NCBI GenBank assembly: GCA_003154195.1
Contig: PMCS01000018.1
Coordinates: 44,773-108,772 of the forward strand
From: Candidatus Omnitrophota bacterium
GTDB taxonomy: Bacteria; Omnitrophota; Gorgyraeia; Duberdicusellales; 4484-171
Direction: 5' to 3'
Length of the DNA: 64,000 nt
Shown: piece after piece, positions 1,626-54,036 of the stretch
How positions within the stretch are numbered: the stretch's first letter is position 1
Layout of the letters: every line of letters begins with the position of its first letter
The notes under the pieces: generated by a model
What the model was told of the DNA's origin: nothing
Seen by the model: the letters and a program-made list of their open reading frames with translations, nothing else
Database searches by the model: none
Position numbers and translations under genes: made by a program

Positions 1626-1690
1626 TAAAAGCTTATTAGGAAATGAAACACAGGCGGCCCGTTTACATTCAGGCTGCGTTTTGAGTCAGC

Positions 1691-3202
1691 TCAGGAGAGC
1701 CCTTTGAAGGTGCGGGCCACGCGCTCAAGCACCGGAAGATGCTTTAAAAAAATATCTTTGGGGGCCGAGAAATGCATAACAAAAAAACCCTCTTTAGCCG
1801 GCAGGACATAGAACTTTTCCTTGAGTATTACGCTCTCGTCCGATTTGCTCTCAGGATGGAGATAGTGTTTTTCCTCGCGGTCAAACTCAAACGCTTTTCT
1901 TTTGTCCAGGGTTTTGGTCGTTACCGGGCTGTATTTGTCCGTCGCCGCGGCCATGTCATCTTGTGAATTGCTGTCCACATAGTCATTGTAATCCTTGAAA
2001 TATTTGTTGCCTTTGGAAAAGTACGAAACATATAAGGTCACCGGAACCTTTTCCGCGTCAGGGGCAATAAGTTCTATCTGAAAAACCCCCATCCTCTCCT
2101 GATCGGCCTTTTTCTCCAACCGCCAGTTCTCAGGCACTTCGCATGAAAAATAGCCGTCCCGAGAGAAGGCCTTGAAGCCTTCGCCTTCCGGTATCAAGGC
2201 TTTTACCTTACCATGATTCCCTCCCTCTACTGCGTTAGATAAAGGAGGAAGCGAAGGTTTTTCTTGTTGCGATGATTCATTTTTGCCGCTTCCCGATTTT
2301 TCCAGTAATTGAGAAATGTATTCAAGCCCATTTTTTTTAGCTAAAGATAAAGCAGTATCTCCATCTTTATCTTTTAAATCCGTCTTTGCGCCTTTTGCAA
2401 GAAGCGCCCGTACTATGGCTGCATCCCCATCGATAACAGCATCGATAAGCGGTGTTCTTCCAGTATTCAGCCACCCTTCATTTTGCGCATCCTCCTGCAC
2501 ATTCACATCAGCGCCTTTTTCAAGCAGGACATATATCGTTTTTGTCTTATCCCCTTCAGGGCCAAAGCGAGAGGAATAATGTTTACATGCTTCAAGCAAG
2601 GGGGTAACGCCGCCGCTTTTACCATTCACATCAGCGCCTTTTAAAATAAGGTATTTTACAACTTTAACATGCCCTTGGGCCGACGCCTCTATCAAGGGTG
2701 TTCTATCGCCGTCTTCTTTGCCGAAATCGATTTCTGCGCCATGTTCGATTAACAGCTTTACAATTTTAAGATTTCCATACATGGCGGCAGTGGATAACGG
2801 CGTTCCCGAGCGTCCCTTTTCGTTTATCTCATCTTCGTTGAGGCCTAAAAGAGCTGCCCTAAGGAATGCCTTTTTATATTTAGCATCACCTGGCTGCGCA
2901 GCAATTTTTGCCTTGAGGTCTTGGAATGCCTGGCTACTTTTATAAGCTTCCAGTGCCTTAAGAATTGATTTTACTTTTTTAATATCGCCCTTCTTAACAG
3001 CTTCCAACAAAGGAAAGTCGGGCGGAGGAAGAAAATCTATAATTGCGCCGCCATCCCTCTCGCCATATCTTACTGAATTGTTTTGTTCATCGTGGGGGAT
3101 CCGCCACTGTTCCCAGTCCATACCAAACGCTGGGTTTGAATAAAAAAAGACCGCAGAGCAGGCGCACGCAAGAAACATCGTCAAAATTTTTCTTTTCATC
3201 AT
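1691..3202 (-). CDS. Secreted ankyrin-repeat protein with C-terminal domain of the local paralog family
   Basis: Signal peptide MMKRKILTMFLACACSAVFFYSNPAFG. At least four ankyrin repeats (G-TPL-A---G---V--LL--GA--N pattern). C-terminal ~150 aa matches the domain in 3276-4454 and 5248-5889 (GYF..IP..W ... KFYVLP..GFFV..FSAP.D). Confidence 0.75.
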   Translation of the reverse strand: MMKRKILTMFLACACSAVFFYSNPAFGMDWEQWRIPHDEQNNSVRYGERDGGAIIDFLPPPDFPLLEAVKKGDIKKVKSILKALEAYKSSQAFQDLKAKIAAQPGDAKYKKAFLRAALLGLNEDEINEKGRSGTPLSTAAMYGNLKIVKLLIEHGAEIDFGKEDGDRTPLIEASAQGHVKVVKYLILKGADVNGKSGGVTPLLEACKHYSSRFGPEGDKTKTIYVLLEKGADVNVQEDAQNEGWLNTGRTPLIDAVIDGDAAIVRALLAKGAKTDLKDKDGDTALSLAKKNGLEYISQLLEKSGSGKNESSQQEKPSLPPLSNAVEGGNHGKVKALIPEGEGFKAFSRDGYFSCEVPENWRLEKKADQERMGVFQIELIAPDAEKVPVTLYVSYFSKGNKYFKDYNDYVDSNSQDDMAAATDKYSPVTTKTLDKRKAFEFDREEKHYLHPESKSDESVILKEKFYVLPAKEGFFVMHFSAPKDIFLKHLPVLERVARTFKGLS

Positions 3203-3275
3203 TATTTTTCCCCTATTCTTGCTTAATTTTCTGACATTACTTTGTATATTTTGTTCATGCGGCGCATCGCTGTCT

Positions 3276-4454
3276 TCATGTATTCGGCTTAAAAGACGCT
3301 ATAACCTGGTCGAAAATTTTCATCGATTCATCGGCTATGTCTTCAGGAGCTGAATACTCGAGAACATAGAAACCTTTGTTGCCTTTCAGGATAATGAGAC
3401 GTTTAAACATCGGGATTTTTACGGGATCGACTGCATAGGGAGGAATAAAGATAAATATTTTTTGGTCGAACTGGCTGGCAGCTCTTCCGGCAATGGTTAC
3501 GGTTTTGACCGGCCCGACCTTTTCTCCGGGCAAATTCATTCTTTCACGCGGATCGGCATTGAGCTTCAAAAACTTCTCCGCCGACGTGAAATAGCCATGG
3601 TCAGGGCCGTAATAGGTAATCGTTATGCTTGAAAATCCGCCGGCTTTATTCTTGGGCCCTTTCAGATTGACCCCATATTCTTTGGCTACCTCACCGCTGG
3701 CGATGCTCTCGTACTTTACCCAACTCTTCGGAATTTTTGCCATAAAATAATTTTTATAGCAGCAAAACTCAACTTCTTCAGGATTTTGCGGGATAATTGC
3801 TTTTTGAGCATCCTCGCTTATCTTGACCGCCTCATTGCCTGCAAAGGAGGCCAGCACGGATTCGTACTCTGCCAGCCCGGTTTCGGCCGCCGCCATTGAA
3901 GAGTAATAACTCAGGACATAAAATCCGTTCTTTACCGGGATGACGTGAAACTTTTCGTAGATGGGAATTTTTTTAGGCGAGATGGTCTCCGGCGGGACAA
4001 ACTCAAAAATCCTGCGCTCAAAAATTTTAGCGTAATACTTGCCCACCAGCCCGTTCTCCACGGGGCCGTACTTTTCGCCGTCCAGGGCGGCGCCCAACAC
4101 CGGCCGGGAGTGGGTTGCGATGAATTTTTCGGCTGTCTTGTGCAGCATATTGCCGGGGGCGTAATAGCGCACCGATATTTTTGAAACTATCCCGTCGGCG
4201 TCTTCCGGCCCCAGGAACTCCGCGCCATAGACTTTCTTTTCTTCCTGGGACAGCCCGAACGCGGCATCAGCCTTGTACCAGCCCGCCGGGATTTTCACCG
4301 TAAAATACCCATCCTCAGTATAAGCCGTCGCCGCCTCCTTTGCGCCGGCCTGGGCGGACGCGCCGGCGGGTAGAATTAAAACTGTTAATGCTAATATTTT
4401 GCTGATGTTTATAAAGACTGTCTTTAAAACCGCTAAATTATTTGTTCTGCTCAT
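3276..4454 (-). CDS. Secreted protein with two tandem copies of a ~170-aa paralog-family domain
   Basis: Signal peptide; internal duplication. Second copy is ~70% identical to 5248-5889. Shared C-terminus ESMKIFDQVIASFKPN(T/A). Confidence 0.6.
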   Translation of the reverse strand: MSRTNNLAVLKTVFINISKILALTVLILPAGASAQAGAKEAATAYTEDGYFTVKIPAGWYKADAAFGLSQEEKKVYGAEFLGPEDADGIVSKISVRYYAPGNMLHKTAEKFIATHSRPVLGAALDGEKYGPVENGLVGKYYAKIFERRIFEFVPPETISPKKIPIYEKFHVIPVKNGFYVLSYYSSMAAAETGLAEYESVLASFAGNEAVKISEDAQKAIIPQNPEEVEFCCYKNYFMAKIPKSWVKYESIASGEVAKEYGVNLKGPKNKAGGFSSITITYYGPDHGYFTSAEKFLKLNADPRERMNLPGEKVGPVKTVTIAGRAASQFDQKIFIFIPPYAVDPVKIPMFKRLIILKGNKGFYVLEYSAPEDIADESMKIFDQVIASFKPNT

Positions 4455-5255
4455 CTATTCCCTCCGCTATGATTTTTTTCCGTTTCGGCCAGTAAGGATC
4501 CCACTTCGGGGCTGCCTGCGCTCCTGGCCCAGTCGGCCGGGGTTTTTCCTTCGTTGTCTTTGGCGCCCCTGTTGGCCCCTTTACCCAGGAGATAACGAAC
4601 TATTTCAGGTTTCTTGCTTAGCGCGGCATAGTGAAGCGGCGTGACATCATTCGCATTCTTGTCGTTTATGTTGGCTGACTTTTCGCAAAGGAGCTGAACA
4701 ATCGGAAGATGGCCGCAATACGCCGCTGTGGCCAGCGGGTGTCGATCCTTGAAGTGTTCGCGCATTAACGTCTGCGCCATGGGCGATAAGATTGGATGCG
4801 ACATTCGTTAAACCCAGCTTGGCTGTCAGGTGCAGGGGGGTTGTGTTATCGACATCCCCGAGTTTTGTGTCTGCGCCGGCGGCAATAAGTTGCAGCGCGG
4901 CGTCTTGGCGTTCAAAGGCCACTGCCATATAAAGGGCGGTGCGTTTGAGTTTATCCTGCGAATTTAATGGGGCTTTGGCTTCTATGAGTATCCGGAGAGT
5001 ATTTGTATTGCCGGTCGCGGCGGCGTATGCCAGCACCATTATCCCATCTTCGGTAATGATGGCTTCAGGCAGCCTGGGATACCGGGCAATAAGAGCTTGG
5101 AGGCCATTTACATCACCGGCATCCAGAACAGCCGCAACATCTCTGGCCTGAAGCTCTTTTTCAGCGGCTGCTTTTGCCGCCGGCAAGCTTACCATGGACA
5201 ATGCTACGAGGAATATCGTCAAAATTTTTCTTTTCACCATCATAGCTTCATGCAT
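4451..5255 (-). CDS. Secreted ankyrin-repeat protein, apparently frameshifted (two overlapping ORFs 4647-5255 and 4451-4804)
   Basis: ORF 4647-5255 carries a signal peptide plus ankyrin repeats and then turns to non-ankyrin sequence. ORF 4451-4804 in another frame continues with clean ankyrin repeats (DVTPLHYAALSKKPEIVRYLLGKGAN). The overlap is around 4780-4804. Confidence 0.5.
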
Positions 5256-5889
5256 TCGGCTTAAAAGACGCGATAACCTGGTCGAAAATTTTCATCGACT
5301 CATCGACCATGTCTTCAGGAGCTGAGTACATGATAACATAGAAACCCTTATCGCCCTTCAGGATGATGAGGCGCTCAAACATCGGGATCTTTACGGGGTT
5401 GACGGCATCAGGAGGCATAAAAATAAATGCTTTTTTGTCTAACTGGTTGGCAGGTCTTCCGGCAATAGATACGGCTTTGGCGGTCCCGACCTTCTCTGCG
5501 GGTAAACTCCAGCTGCCGTCCGGACCGACATCGAATTTCAGAAAATCCTCCACCGACTTGAACCTTCTATGGTCGGGCCCATAATAGGTGATCTTTATGT
5601 ATGGAAATCCGCCGGCTTTATTCTTAGGCCCCTTCAGATCGACCCCATATTCCTTGTACACGTCAGCATCGCCGATCTCCTCATACTTGGCCCAACTCTT
5701 GGGAATTTTTGCCGTAAAATAATTGTTATAGCAGATGAACTTCTCGAAAACCTCTTTTTCCTTTGTGGACGACGCATTCGTTTCGGCGTAGCTTTGATCA
5801 ACAAAGCAAAAACCAATCATCGCAAAGATGACGGCAGCCAAACACATAAGCCTTGATCTTTTCACCGATATTATGGTTCGATTGTTCAT
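5248..5889 (-). CDS. Secreted single-domain member of the local paralog family
   Basis: Signal/TM anchor then the domain NYFTAKIPKSW...KITYYGPDH...FIFMPP...GFYV.MYSAPED...ESMKIFDQVIASFKPNA. 3' end and downstream DNA are near-identical to the 3276 region. Confidence 0.6.
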   Translation of the reverse strand: MNNRTIISVKRSRLMCLAAVIFAMIGFCFVDQSYAETNASSTKEKEVFEKFICYNNYFTAKIPKSWAKYEEIGDADVYKEYGVDLKGPKNKAGGFPYIKITYYGPDHRRFKSVEDFLKFDVGPDGSWSLPAEKVGTAKAVSIAGRPANQLDKKAFIFMPPDAVNPVKIPMFERLIILKGDKGFYVIMYSAPEDMVDESMKIFDQVIASFKPNA

Positions 5890-5902
5890 CTGTTCTTCCT
5901 GC

Positions 5903-7081
5903 TTATTTGGACATGTCCATGGGGGTAATAATAAAGTAATCCGAGCTATAAACGTCGGCCGGGCTAAAGGTAATACCCAGGAGTCTCTTTACCGGGGAAC
6001 TATTTTCCGGGATCTTGCGGCCGGCCTTGGCCAGAACCCATTGGCCCGCCTCCGAGCAGACCAGATTGTCATCGCCGTAAAGGCCATAGTTGGTATTGTC
6101 GATCCAGTTATATCTCTTTTCCGGCTCGCTGGCCAGCTCCTTGATTTCCAGTTCCTTGGCCGCGGCCAAGAGCTTGTTGGCTTCCTTATCGTTCAGCGGC
6201 TGCGCAACCGCGGCCGCGTAAACCGTGCGGGAACCATACCTCGTCTGTAACTCATCTTCGGTAATAATATGCGGGCCTTCGCCTCCCTTATTGTCCAAAA
6301 AGAACTTCTTGCCGTCAACCGTCTTGAGGTAGATCACTGCATGGGAAGCCGGCGATTTCCATTCCCAGGAGCCAAGCCGGTCGCCAAAACGGATCAGCTT
6401 ACTTTTTACGTCATCCGGCTCAAAAAGCAGCATGTCGCCGGACTTAAGTTGCGCAACCTGCTTATAAGGCAAGGGCGGGGCTTTCGTCTTTAAAGACGCG
6501 CAAATCGCGCTGCAATATTGGTTTGGTTCTTTGGTCCGCTGCTGAACAAGTTTCTTCTGGTTTTGCGACCAGGCGGCGGGATCATTCTCCAACTGCTTTT
6601 GCTGCGCTTCTACCATGGCTTTCTGCTTGAGGGAATCTTTCGCCAGCTTCAGATTCTGCTGTATGACCTTGTCGCCGGGGTTCAGCTTCAGCGCTTTCTG
6701 GTAACAGTCGATAGCGGCATTCCAGTCGCTATTCTGATAAGCGGCATTGCCTTTTTCATTCAGGGCATATACATCAGCCCTGCGTTTTTCTTCTTTCTGC
6801 CTTTCCTGTTCAGCCTTTAATGCTTTCTGCTTTTCCTGCGCCGCTCTCTGTTCGGCCATCTGCGCAGCCCTCTGTTTAGCCGTCTCTTCAGCCTGTTCAG
6901 TCCTCCACTCCGCCGCTCGTTGCAGCCGATCAGCTCTATCTTCATCTCTCCCTGAATTGTCTTGTCCGTCGCGGGGGATCCGCCACTGTTCCCAGTCCAT
7001 GCCAAACGCTGGGTTTGAATAAAAAAATACCGCAGAGCAGGCGCACGCAAGAAACATCGTCAAAATTTTTCTTTTCATCAT
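5903..7081 (-). CDS. Secreted coiled-coil/TPR-like protein with C-terminal permuted papain-like (NlpC/P60 superfamily, YiiX-like) domain
   Basis: Signal peptide identical to that of 1691-3202; charged coiled-coil region (AEQRAAQEKQKALKAEQERQKEEKRR); TPR-like YQKALKLNPGDK. C-terminal part has His-before-Cys arrangement (SHAVIYLK ... LVCSEAGQWV). Domain call is tentative. Confidence 0.45.
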   Translation of the reverse strand: MMKRKILTMFLACACSAVFFYSNPAFGMDWEQWRIPRDGQDNSGRDEDRADRLQRAAEWRTEQAEETAKQRAAQMAEQRAAQEKQKALKAEQERQKEEKRRADVYALNEKGNAAYQNSDWNAAIDCYQKALKLNPGDKVIQQNLKLAKDSLKQKAMVEAQQKQLENDPAAWSQNQKKLVQQRTKEPNQYCSAICASLKTKAPPLPYKQVAQLKSGDMLLFEPDDVKSKLIRFGDRLGSWEWKSPASHAVIYLKTVDGKKFFLDNKGGEGPHIITEDELQTRYGSRTVYAAAVAQPLNDKEANKLLAAAKELEIKELASEPEKRYNWIDNTNYGLYGDDNLVCSEAGQWVLAKAGRKIPENSSPVKRLLGITFSPADVYSSDYFIITPMDMSK

Positions 7082-7248
7082 TCTATTTTACTCCGATATA
7101 CCGAAAAGTTAAATCATTTGTTTTTCATATTCCCCGGCATTCTTTTTCACATTCCTCTTTTGTTTCAAATGGAAGATTTGCTTCCAGGTTACCCTTTTTG
7201 TCTGGCCGCTTATTATATTAAGGCTATCGTCAGATAGACAGATGATAG

Positions 7249-9978: not shown

Positions 9979-10566
9979 TTATCTTTTTGGTTCCGGCTCG
10001 TTCCGGTTGGGGTCGGATTTTATCAGCCTGAATGTTTTGAGGGAATCCTCGAATTGCGGATTCATTTTGCTATAGAATTCCGGCGATGCGGCAAAAAATA
10101 TTGCATAATAGTTGTGGGTGTAAATAAATATAATTTCATGAGTCCTTTTGATTCCGCCCAGCGCTGTGGTAAGCCCCTCTATGTCCCAGGCTTCCACACC
10201 TCCGATTTTGCGTATTGTTTGCGACAATATTTTATCGCCGATTTTATTTTTGTGCGCGATAACCATTTTTTTTCCTTCTTCCCATGCTCCCGATAGGTTA
10301 GTCGGCATGGTCACGATTTGCATCATTGCCCGCGAGGGATCGCCTTTATCTTTAAAAGGAGAAAATGTATTGGAAATGATTTTTTCCCAGCCTCCGGGGA
10401 TATCAAGGCAAAACATTCCATAGGGGTCGAGGTAGGCATAATTATTGCGTTTCCTCAAGCACCCGTTGAACAGCAGGGCGGTTATCAGGCAAAACAAAAC
10501 GAGGTATGCAATCGGATTTTTACCGGTCGTTGCTCGGCGTTTTCCCGCCAATATTCTTTCTTTCAT
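9979..10566 (-). CDS. Membrane-anchored hypothetical protein
   Basis: N-terminal TM helix then soluble domain with no recognised motifs. Confidence 0.4.
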   Translation of the reverse strand: MKERILAGKRRATTGKNPIAYLVLFCLITALLFNGCLRKRNNYAYLDPYGMFCLDIPGGWEKIISNTFSPFKDKGDPSRAMMQIVTMPTNLSGAWEEGKKMVIAHKNKIGDKILSQTIRKIGGVEAWDIEGLTTALGGIKRTHEIIFIYTHNYYAIFFAASPEFYSKMNPQFEDSLKTFRLIKSDPNRNEPEPKR

Positions 10567-52936: not shown

Positions 52937-53812
52937 TTAAGCCCGCGGATGTGCCTTGTCATAAACTTTTTTCAACGTATCCATGGTTAAATGGGTATAG
53001 ATTTGCGTCGTCGCGATGCTGGAATGGCCTAATAGTTCCTGGACGCTGCGCAAATCCGCGCCGTGATTCAGCAGGTGCGTGGCGAATGAATGGCGAAAGG
53101 TATGCGGTGAAATACTCAAAGTGATTGACGTCTGGTGTATATATTTGTTAACAATATTTCGTACGCTACGGTCGGTCAGGCTTCCCAGCCGTTTGTTTAC
53201 TAATAAGGAAGGATTTTTATCATTTCGGCGGTCGATATATTTTTTTAACGCTATAATTGCCGGTTCCCCCAGGGGCAAAAGCCGTTCTTTTTTTCCCTTG
53301 CCGATAACCTTTGCGATTCCGCTGATTAAGTCAACATCGTTAATTTTTAGCGATACCAGCTCCGCGACTCGCGCGCCGGTAGAATAAAGCGTTTCCAGTA
53401 TCGCTTTATCTCTTAGCGTCATGATATCGTCGCCTTTGGGGGCGTTTAGAATCCGAGAGATATCTTCTTCGGTTAAAAACTTCGGCAAAGGTTTGTCGAG
53501 TTTAGGGTAAATTAAAGATACCGCCGGGTTATTTTTCATTTCCCCTTCTTTTACCATGAATTTAAAAAAACTTTTCAGGGTGGAAATTTTTCGCGATAAG
53601 GTCCGTTTATTGAATTTTTTTTCGCTCAACGAACTCAAAAACTTACGTAAAAGAAAATAATCGATATCTTTTATGTCTTTCCCGCCGGAAGATTGGAGAA
53701 AGGCATTGAATCCGCGAAGGTCGATCTCGTAGTTTATGATGGTATGGGATGAGTAATTTTTCTCGATATTGAGGTAATTGAGGAATTTGTCGGTGTAATA
53801 GGAGAAAGGTAT
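52937..53812 (-). CDS. Tyrosine site-specific recombinase XerC/XerD
   Basis: C-terminal HTFRHSFATHLLNHGADLRSVQELLGHSSIATTQIYTH. Start set at MIPFSYY because the start-proximal palindrome sits directly upstream of it; the ORF track gives a longer 53893 start. Confidence 0.8.
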   Translation of the reverse strand: MPFSYYTDKFLNYLNIEKNYSSHTIINYEIDLRGFNAFLQSSGGKDIKDIDYFLLRKFLSSLSEKKFNKRTLSRKISTLKSFFKFMVKEGEMKNNPAVSLIYPKLDKPLPKFLTEEDISRILNAPKGDDIMTLRDKAILETLYSTGARVAELVSLKINDVDLISGIAKVIGKGKKERLLPLGEPAIIALKKYIDRRNDKNPSLLVNKRLGSLTDRSVRNIVNKYIHQTSITLSISPHTFRHSFATHLLNHGADLRSVQELLGHSSIATTQIYTHLTMDTLKKVYDKAHPRA

Positions 53813-54036
53813 CATTTTTTTGCTCCGCAAAAAAATCTGTTCATCCGCTTCGCCCCGATACGCCTGAATATCGCGAAAATCTCTTTCAGACATTTTCGCG
53901 AAGCTTTCGGGACTCCGCTTATGCTTCGCGGATGAAAAGGCAGCCTATTTTGCTGGGGGATACCGGCGATATCAATATCGGTTATCGATAGAATAGGGCC
54001 TTTATCCCGTTAGTACGGTTAGTGAGGCGATTTATG

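Follow-up and report, generated by a model that had tools for sequence, protein, structure and literature searches.

Five consecutive minus-strand genes, taken from a list of open reading frames (ORFs), fill positions 1691-7081 of a 64,000-nt stretch of contig PMCS01000018.1 (assembly GCA_003154195.1, Candidatus Omnitrophota bacterium), a stretch that is referred to here at its full length as the window. We think it fairly probable that these genes, numbered 1 to 5 from the upstream end, form a chromosomal, operon-like cluster of five Sec-exported envelope proteins with a history of duplication, fusion and leader copying, and that a hydrolase among their products works with non-catalytic binding partners. 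The cluster is an ordinary one, specific to its lineage, that encodes exported envelope proteins and whose mosaic history is instructive; the role as effectors or in surface variation that an earlier note had suggested from the letters alone is unsupported. The locus bears on no long-standing open question and gives no sign of an unusual mechanism. It does offer a worked example of how exported proteins may be assembled in an uncultured lineage, with a leader apparently copied between unrelated genes, a presumed in-frame deletion-fusion and a domain reused almost unchanged across genomes, and it exposes two unannotated families: an exported domain predicted to have the PsbP fold (about 400 cluster representatives), called D here, and a TPR-linked, probably permuted NlpC/P60 hydrolase.

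Repeated DNA segments

When the 1691-7081 region was compared with the whole window by blastn, just three repeat relations were detected: a leader pair, a third leader copy and a pair of segments that encode two of the D domains, D2b of gene 4 and D3 of gene 2 (Table 1). This self-comparison, which the earlier note had proposed, showed the repeats to be real and far beyond chance. The leader pair (3064-3209 versus 6943-7088) is 92.5% identical over 146 nt without gaps (blastn E 1e-56), and its 110-nt core at 3094-3203 contains two mismatches, both synonymous, which amounts to 98% identity between two otherwise unrelated genes. The pair had been described as near-identical over 3085-3205 and 6965-7085 with two mismatches; the near-identity and the coordinates stand, but that interval holds six mismatches and only the core holds two. 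Nor does the repeat cover upstream sequence, as had been thought: identity begins at the ATGATG start with only about 3-6 nt before it in common, decays over codons 36-46 and is random thereafter, so no promoter DNA is shared. The third, diverged copy opens the ankyrin pseudogene in the middle of the cluster, where a recurrence had been seen at 5215-5240 and where we find 31 of 35 positions identical at 5209-5243 (E 4e-6). The 3' ends of the genes at 3276-4454 and 5248-5889 are homologous as claimed, but the figure of 90% given for them is too high, the identity being 80.8% over 489 nt and reaching about 93% only in the last 60 or so coding nucleotides (3290-3349). It stops 2 nt past the stop codon, which disposes of the idea that downstream DNA is shared as well.

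The Vlp/Vsp lipoproteins of Mycoplasma and the Erp/Mlp lipoproteins of Borrelia combine a conserved 5' leader with variable bodies. The present cluster resembles them in that near-identical DNA for the start and signal peptide sits on differing mature parts, but it has only two or three copies with no shared promoter or 5' untranslated region, and we saw neither a lipobox nor a switching element in it, and no heterogeneity in the population.

Mosaic history of the cluster

Several related contigs bear on how this arrangement came about. The 2.5-kb contig L023 carries a 426-aa orthologue of gene 1 with a D gene (P0003) directly after it, and the 5' end of this orthologue is 79% identical in nucleotides to both window leaders (MMKRRLLKMFLAC...AFG). 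Since the orthologue carries a homologue of the leader, the leader is native to the hydrolase gene. Its counterpart on gene 5, which encodes ankyrin repeats and the domain copy D1, appears to be a recent non-reciprocal copy that includes the first 18 or so mature residues; about 140 nt of the 5' end of the hydrolase gene would have been copied in this step, and the leader on the ankyrin pseudogene could be an older relative. A leader 22-mer had three chance hits only, in unrelated phyla, among GTDB genomes.

The 2.1-kb contig L022 shows, in order, the 3' end of the hydrolase gene, a 338-aa gene and a D gene (P0002), so that one gene stands between the hydrolase and D genes that are adjacent in L023. 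The first 14 codons of the 338-aa gene match the start of gene 4 (88% nucleotide identity) and a 66-nt stretch of it matches the linker between D2a and D2b of gene 4 (91%), while its body is DUF2330-like. The domain of P0002 is 87.9% identical in nucleotides to D2b, and its signal peptide is 86% identical to that of gene 2. The simplest reading is that gene 4 would be a deletion-fusion relative to L022. A P0002-like D gene may have been duplicated to give D3 and D2b, one copy keeping its signal peptide (gene 2) and the other being fused in frame behind the linker of the upstream gene by a deletion of about 1 kb, which would have removed the DUF2330-like domain and the signal peptide of the next gene; D2a would have been acquired between the signal peptide and the linker, producing a gene with two D domains. 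The G+C content at third codon positions (GC3) is 0.68 in D2a (3831-4343) and 0.665 in the hydrolase domain (5906-6493), which places both 3.5-3.8 sd over the window gene mean (0.516, sd 0.043), whereas D2b is average at 0.49 even though it belongs to the same gene as D2a. This composition agrees with the reading just given.

A further relative is found on contig L014, from the Elusimicrobiota metagenome-assembled genome (MAG) GCA_026388155.1. It encodes a 189-aa stand-alone protein (P0167) with its own signal peptide, and this gene is 89.7% identical in nucleotides to window positions 1701-2176, the homology beginning exactly at the D1 boundary (2176). The remainder of the 20 kb of L014 contains nothing else that matches the window. 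Because none of 16 window housekeeping proteins has a 90%-cluster mate outside its own population, D1 may be unusually conserved or may have been exchanged between genomes. The same architecture of signal peptide, ankyrin repeats and D1 is present in a distant homologue, P0090 (34% identity), and the ankyrin-D1 combination is therefore old and recurrent. With the 98% identical leader on unrelated genes, the deletion-fusion suggested by L022, the 89.7% identity of D1 and P0167, and the GC3 contrasts, the proposal that these genes have been shuffled holds over evolutionary time.

Organization and export signals

Genes 1 and 2 are 13 nt apart, genes 2 and 3 overlap by 8 nt, genes 3 and 4 overlap by 4 nt, and 73 nt separate genes 4 and 5; this spacing is operon-like. 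The only sizeable gap on the upstream side, between radC and gene 1, is the likely promoter region (Table 1); two sigma-70-like matches in it (7168-7139 and 7112-7085) are not above the shuffle background. A hairpin just past the last gene is only suggestive as a terminator. Structured RNA was sought in the region and none was found.

Table 1. Positions of the genes and other features of the cluster within the window
Feature	Position	Strand	Description
Upstream region	7082-7248	-	167-nt gap after radC; only sizeable gap on the upstream side
Leader copy A	6943-7088	-	5' end of gene 1: start codon and signal peptide, then ~18 residues of the mature protein
Gene 1, 392 aa	5903-7081	-	Signal peptide 7001-7081, charged coiled coil, TPR 6668-6769, putative hydrolase domain 5906-6493
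Gene 2, 213 aa	5248-5889	-	Signal peptide and one PsbP-like D domain (D3, 5251-5763)
Gene 3, ankyrin pseudogene	4451-5255	-	Overlapping ORFs 4647-5255 and 4451-4804; leader copy 5209-5243
Gene 4, 392 aa, fusion gene (presumed)	3276-4454	-	Signal peptide, D2a 3831-4343, linker 3773-3838, D2b 3279-3782
D2b/D3 paralogous segment	3274-3762, partner 5246-5734	-	80.8% nucleotide identity over 489 nt, ungapped, E 2e-130
Gene 5, 503 aa	1691-3202	-	Leader copy B 3064-3209, ankyrin ~2192-3022, D1 1694-2176
Terminator-like hairpin, weak	1650-1662	-	Just past the last gene; number of such sites not above shuffle expectation

All five N-termini are of the Sec type, with a positive n-region, a hydrophobic 12-mer and small residues at -3/-1 (an A/G-x-A/G-type cleavage context), and their 12-residue hydropathy maxima are 2.3-2.9, compared with 0.1-1.4 in cytoplasmic controls from the same window. 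A lipoprotein reading was rejected, as the FLAC/ACAC context read from the sequence does not fit a canonical lipobox. The ankyrin repeats of gene 5 pass the Pfam gathering threshold for Ank_2 (115.5 bits against a cut-off of 27.3, E 1.7e-33), and the two halves of gene 3 score 105 and 54.7 bits with the same model.

The description of the cluster as five secreted proteins is correct for the genes and their N-termini, but the middle ankyrin gene is a pseudogene with a 1-nt frameshift. An extra C at 4737-4739 shifts gene 3 by +1 and breaks one ankyrin repeat at G-S-T-P | L-A-T-A-A. Because all independent assemblies that cover the site carry the same base, this is a fixed pseudogene and not a sequencing error. 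A programmed frameshift was considered and rejected, since neither a slippery sequence nor a stop-codon context is present and the change is simply from CC to CCC. The fixed frameshift would suit a reading in which the whole region is decaying, that is, a set of relics of past transfers which are pseudogenising and have no coordinated function now. Two nonsense changes in D2a on contig L005 and the heterogeneous composition would also fit this reading. Against it, four of the five genes are intact: the cores of their domains are conserved, and residues of a catalytic type are invariant. The spacing of the genes is tight or overlapping as in an operon, and the L005 changes, which are transversions, lie in a short contig of low coverage and could be sequencing errors. 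We consider decay of the region very unlikely.

Assembly integrity and fixed arrangement

An exact-protein look-up placed the locus on peat metagenome contigs from Stordalen Mire and in MAG GCA_003154645.1, and nine contigs from different samples and assemblers were found to be 99.9-100% identical to the window. The earlier note had named mis-assembly of the duplications as what would overturn its reading, and short contigs that end in the leader repeat (L004 ends at 3094, L007 starts at 7058) could be taken to point to collapsed or chimeric repeats. Against this, the two copies of each repeat pair are contained, at 99.9-100% identity, in four contigs (L001, of 89.7 kb, L003, L005 and L006) that derive from different samples and were built with three assemblers. 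Mis-assembly is excluded because of this agreement, and we give an assembly artefact next to no credence.

Alternative cassette arrangements, for which the earlier note had proposed a check of other strains or metagenomic reads, were not found; all nine assemblies show the same order. Contig L010 at first resembled a strain variant with 95.7% identity, a candidate that was rejected as its mismatches are scaffold Ns. An alternative junction at 6581 on contig L021 was likewise set aside. This contig agrees with the window across radC and into the middle of gene 1 but leaves it at 6581, and its last 115 nt (1655-1769) encode the start of a flavodoxin-like gene (ILVAYFSRSGNTRVIANQIHE); it probably represents a chimeric contig end, not a real junction variant. 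A few single-base differences from the window do occur. Contig L005 has six differences in total, five of them transversions, among which are two nonsense substitutions in the D2a part of gene 4, K106* (window 4139) and L120* (4096); these may be errors or strain-level pseudogenisation.

A search for a switching device revealed only weak, chance-level inverted repeats in the region and no simple-sequence tracts, and there is no invertible element, silent cassette array or adjacent recombinase. The nearest and only recombinase found is the housekeeping XerC at 52937-53893, about 46 kb away. We conclude that the locus has one fixed form in the population sampled and does not work as a switching system.

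These results bear directly on the reading given in the earlier note, according to which recombination drives an effector or surface-variation locus in a bacterium associated with a host or partner, and eukaryote-like ankyrin effectors are diversified by cassette exchange. Ankyrin repeats are enriched in symbionts and pathogens, and some Elusimicrobiota are endosymbionts of protists; near-identical 5' modules do occur on different genes, and the cluster is demonstrably mosaic when compared with related contigs. All the same, there is one arrangement in nine assemblies, the apparent variants being scaffold Ns or contig-end chimeras, and there is no silent cassette array, invertase, inverted repeat of note or simple-sequence repeat tract. 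Proteins with Sec signal peptides are expected to be exported to the periplasm or by a Sec-dependent route rather than injected, one of the ankyrin genes is a pseudogene that has become fixed, and the peat source together with housekeeping, lipopolysaccharide and hydrogenase genes fits a free-living anaerobe. Models of Legionella Ank effectors gave at best 58 bits, where their cut-offs are 450-1400 (500 for the best one), and these are generic ankyrin matches. No type IV secretion system genes were seen among the window genes examined. The fixed arrangement, the lack of a switching device, the low Legionella Ank scores and the Sec peptides speak against such a locus, and we attach little likelihood to it.

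The D domain

A hidden Markov model (HMM) of the D family detects exactly four copies in the window, all within the cluster, with E values of 2e-88 for D3, 9e-69 and 4e-87 for the two domains of gene 4, and 5e-64 for D1. The domain, of about 150 aa, had been called private to the cluster. A word-index search indeed returned 7 homologues only, and a metagenome scan with the D alignment gave just 3 short loci; an exhaustive HMM search of metagenome cluster representatives, however, yielded 396 at E<=1e-3 and 257 at E<=1e-10, with fusions to other domains outside the cluster, so the domain is not private. The family is small, and there are no Pfam or NCBIfam models for it.

Structure prediction, which had been proposed for this domain, proved informative. 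The AlphaFold2 (AF2) model has a pLDDT of 87, and in a Foldseek search its first matches were PsbP, CyanoP and PPL (E 3e-6, probability 1.0, TM 0.55-0.62), followed by DcrB, Tsi3, EagT6/SciW, Mog1 and LpqN. All 30 PDB matches at E<=1e-3 have a PsbP/Mog1-type fold. In sequence, none of the four window copies matches Pfam PsbP (PF01789) at E<=0.1, and the best family member for this model, P0027, scores 21.3 bits (E 3e-4), below the cut-off of 23.5. Two conserved motifs are particular to the family, F-x4-P-x2-W at its beginning and G-F-Y-V-L-x-Y/F-S-A-P towards its end; residues of a catalytic type are not conserved in it. We regard D as an undescribed sequence family with a predicted PsbP/Mog1 fold, whose members in bacteria bind other molecules and are not enzymes. 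Like members of that superfamily, the D domain of the window is exported, about 160 aa long, superposable and without conserved catalytic-type residues, and it fits the binding or adaptor roles of the bacterial members; it differs from them in being only 7-16% identical to any solved member and in having its own motifs and its own fusions (ankyrin, WD40, TPR, DUF2330, peptidase inhibitors).

The copies in the cluster do share a family, as claimed, but only D2b and D3 are close paralogues. Three deeply divergent subfamilies are present, with 19-33% identity between them: D2b and D3 are 70% identical to each other in amino acids and 62-80% identical to P0002 and P0003, D1 is 88% identical to P0167 and 37-40% identical to the ankyrin-fused P0089 and P0090, and D2a is at most 40% identical to any other member (33% to D2b). 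Divergent family members have therefore come together in the cluster, which is not the product of recent local amplification.

Most members of the D family are stand-alone exported proteins of about 200 aa. Longer ones are fused to ankyrin repeats (in both orders), WD40, TPR, DUF2330 (also with Kunitz), a chagasin-type I42 inhibitor or AcrB-like sequence, and the fusions to repeat scaffolds and peptidase inhibitors suggest a possible function. In five proteins (P0077, P0129, P0130, P0155 and P0156) an N-terminal D is followed from about HMM position 40 by AcrB/ACR_tran sequence; these joins are either an odd fusion with a transporter of the resistance-nodulation-division (RND) type or a gene-calling artefact on contig ends. 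DUF2330 and D are neighbours in L022 and are fused in P0030 and P0092, and contig L025 (1274-4102) has two tandem genes that each encode a DUF2330-like and D fusion. On L014 (6707-10570) the stand-alone D1-type gene comes after a secreted Peptidase_C11 gene and a gene for a 628-aa secreted protein with an HEGTH (HExxH-like) motif, a neighbourhood which hints that the D domain is tied to exported peptidases.

Gene 1 and its putative hydrolase domain

Gene 1 has a match to TPR_1 (E 5.6e-9) and, in its C-terminal part, a domain of about 196 aa for which a word-index search found 8 homologues with 42-57% identity. Their alignment (A3) shows an invariant H51 (S-H-x-V) and, about 95 residues further on, an invariant C146 (V-C-S), besides invariant D20 and D38; the His thus stands N-terminal to the Cys, which is the permuted order. 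The C-terminal domain of the gene 1 protein itself has no hydrolase match in Pfam, and the homologue P0013 matches Peptidase_C92 at E 1.5e-4 and 22.3 bits, under the cut-off of 27. The top PDB profile match of the family is 3kw0, a 'cysteine peptidase' (E 0.094), in an alignment that covers the L-x-P-G-D-V-L-L (G-D-[VI]-[LF]-L) and S-H-x-V motifs. Foldseek with a weak AF2 model (pLDDT 57.6) placed three 3kw0 chains first (E 1.4e-3, probability 0.98-0.99, TM 0.32-0.37), the next match having an E of 0.39. We consider it likely that this domain is a circularly permuted Cys-His hydrolase of the NlpC/P60 type (YiiX/C92-like). With the known permuted enzymes (PF05708 Peptidase_C92, YaeF/YiiX; 3kw0) the family shares the His before the Cys, common motifs and 3kw0 as the best fold match; it differs in scoring below the Pfam threshold, in having just 8 homologues by word-index search and in the additions that gene 1 carries, namely a signal peptide, a coiled-coil stretch, a single TPR and a W...PN...SLKTKAPPLPY pre-domain that is conserved.

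Exported TPR proteins have also expanded locally on L020 (6595-9751), where four tandem paralogues of about 250 aa lie upstream of a distant hydrolase homologue; three of the four have a called N-terminal signal peptide and all four a C-terminal TPR.

Possible function

AnkB of Pseudomonas aeruginosa is a periplasmic bacterial ankyrin protein. Like AnkB and the Imm-ank proteins (PMC3482391), the present cluster has ankyrin repeats behind a Sec signal peptide, together with small binding modules, in a free-living diderm; it differs in lacking a catalase or toxin partner, and the fusion of ankyrin repeats with a PsbP-like domain (found elsewhere in both orders, P0089 and P0090) is, as far as we have checked, not a described architecture.

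The most interesting rival to our explanation is a Sec-dependent toxin with poly-immunity, in which gene 1 would encode an exported papain-fold amidase toxin, immunity would come from the periplasmic PsbP-like and ankyrin proteins encoded downstream, both cognate and orphan, and the shared 5' segment would be a recombination handle. A signal peptide, repeats and a C-terminal toxin domain are listed for polymorphic toxins of the Sec or type II secretion system kind, and immunity loci and operons of the type VI secretion system (T6SS) contain ankyrin repeats (Imm-ank) and PsbP/MOG1 modules (PMC3482391). Gene 1, with its signal peptide, TPR and papain-like C-terminal domain, fits the Sec-dependent architecture (PMC3482391), Eag chaperones and the periplasmic immunity protein Tsi3 are among the PsbP-fold matches, and D domains elsewhere are fused to peptidase inhibitors. 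In the window as in L023, the hydrolase gene is directly followed by a D gene; in L022 one gene lies between the two. This adjacency is absent in L018-L020, where the distant hydrolase homologues have neither D nor ankyrin neighbours, and a hydrolase-D gene pair conserved across the whole hydrolase family was not found. The linkage is confined to the close lineage, and this weighs against a toxin-immunity locus. So do the D family, which is mostly found elsewhere with DUF2330, C11 peptidase and repeat fusions, and the shared leader, which sits on an ankyrin-D protein and not on a second toxin. The 64-kb window, moreover, contains no genes of the T6SS or of type V or type VII secretion systems, no RHS/PAAR, no pre-toxin domains and no orphan toxin cassettes. 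We judge a toxin-immunity locus improbable.

The explanation that we favour is a cluster of exported proteins that would do their work in the periplasm or on the surface of the cell. The putative hydrolase could cleave an amide bond in an envelope substrate, and the D modules and ankyrin repeats may assist exported peptidases as binders, adaptors or regulators that are not themselves catalytic, a proposal that draws on fold, fusions and gene neighbourhoods. In a more specific form, the D family would be a widespread periplasmic partner of exported peptidases (an inhibitor, immunity-like protein or adaptor), genes 1 and 2 would encode a Sec-delivered amidase of the permuted NlpC/P60 type and its cognate D inhibitor, and the swapping of signal-peptide and domain modules would have diversified the ankyrin-D and D-D proteins, which would serve as further or orphan binders; this form is speculative and we think it rather doubtful.

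Several points weigh against the favoured explanation. The hydrolase assignment is weak, as gene 1 has no Pfam match there, its AF2 model reaches a pLDDT of only 58 and the best homologue scores 22 bits against 27, and the distant homologues on L018-L020 have no D gene nearby. The direction of leader copying and its mechanism, which could be gene conversion or partial duplication, are deduced from one orthologue, and the alternative arrangements are documented by two short contigs only (2.1 and 2.5 kb). The association of D with peptidases comes from a handful of contexts, from which the role of the family is inferred, and it is solely the spacing of the genes that speaks for an operon.

Genomic setting

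The genes around the cluster include radC, SUI1, a DEAD-box helicase gene, rmuC, topA, xerC, dprA, lpxK, kdtA, an lpxL-like gene and a heptosyltransferase gene, and further hydE/hydG and genes for Mrp/hydrogenase subunits and butyryl-CoA dehydrogenase. This content indicates that the window is ordinary chromosome, with the profile of a diderm anaerobe that lives by fermentation in peat. The cluster mate of D1 on L014, a single label for a possibly mobile domain, would make Elusimicrobiota the probable phylum. The window genes examined gave no signature of a secretion system, of defence or of phage. A role in anti-phage defence was rejected, with generic ankyrin matches only, and so was a phage origin, as neither the D family nor the hydrolase family has viral relatives.

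A second, unrelated PsbP-like exported protein may be encoded 3 kb from the cluster, where a 195-aa lipoprotein-like gene on the minus strand (9979-10566) has a weak match to Pfam PsbP (E 0.0018) and is not matched by the D-family HMM. In the flank beyond window position 1, contig L001 (15890-20642) encodes a DUF4139/DUF4140 protein, a response regulator and a Gp49/HTH toxin-antitoxin-like pair.

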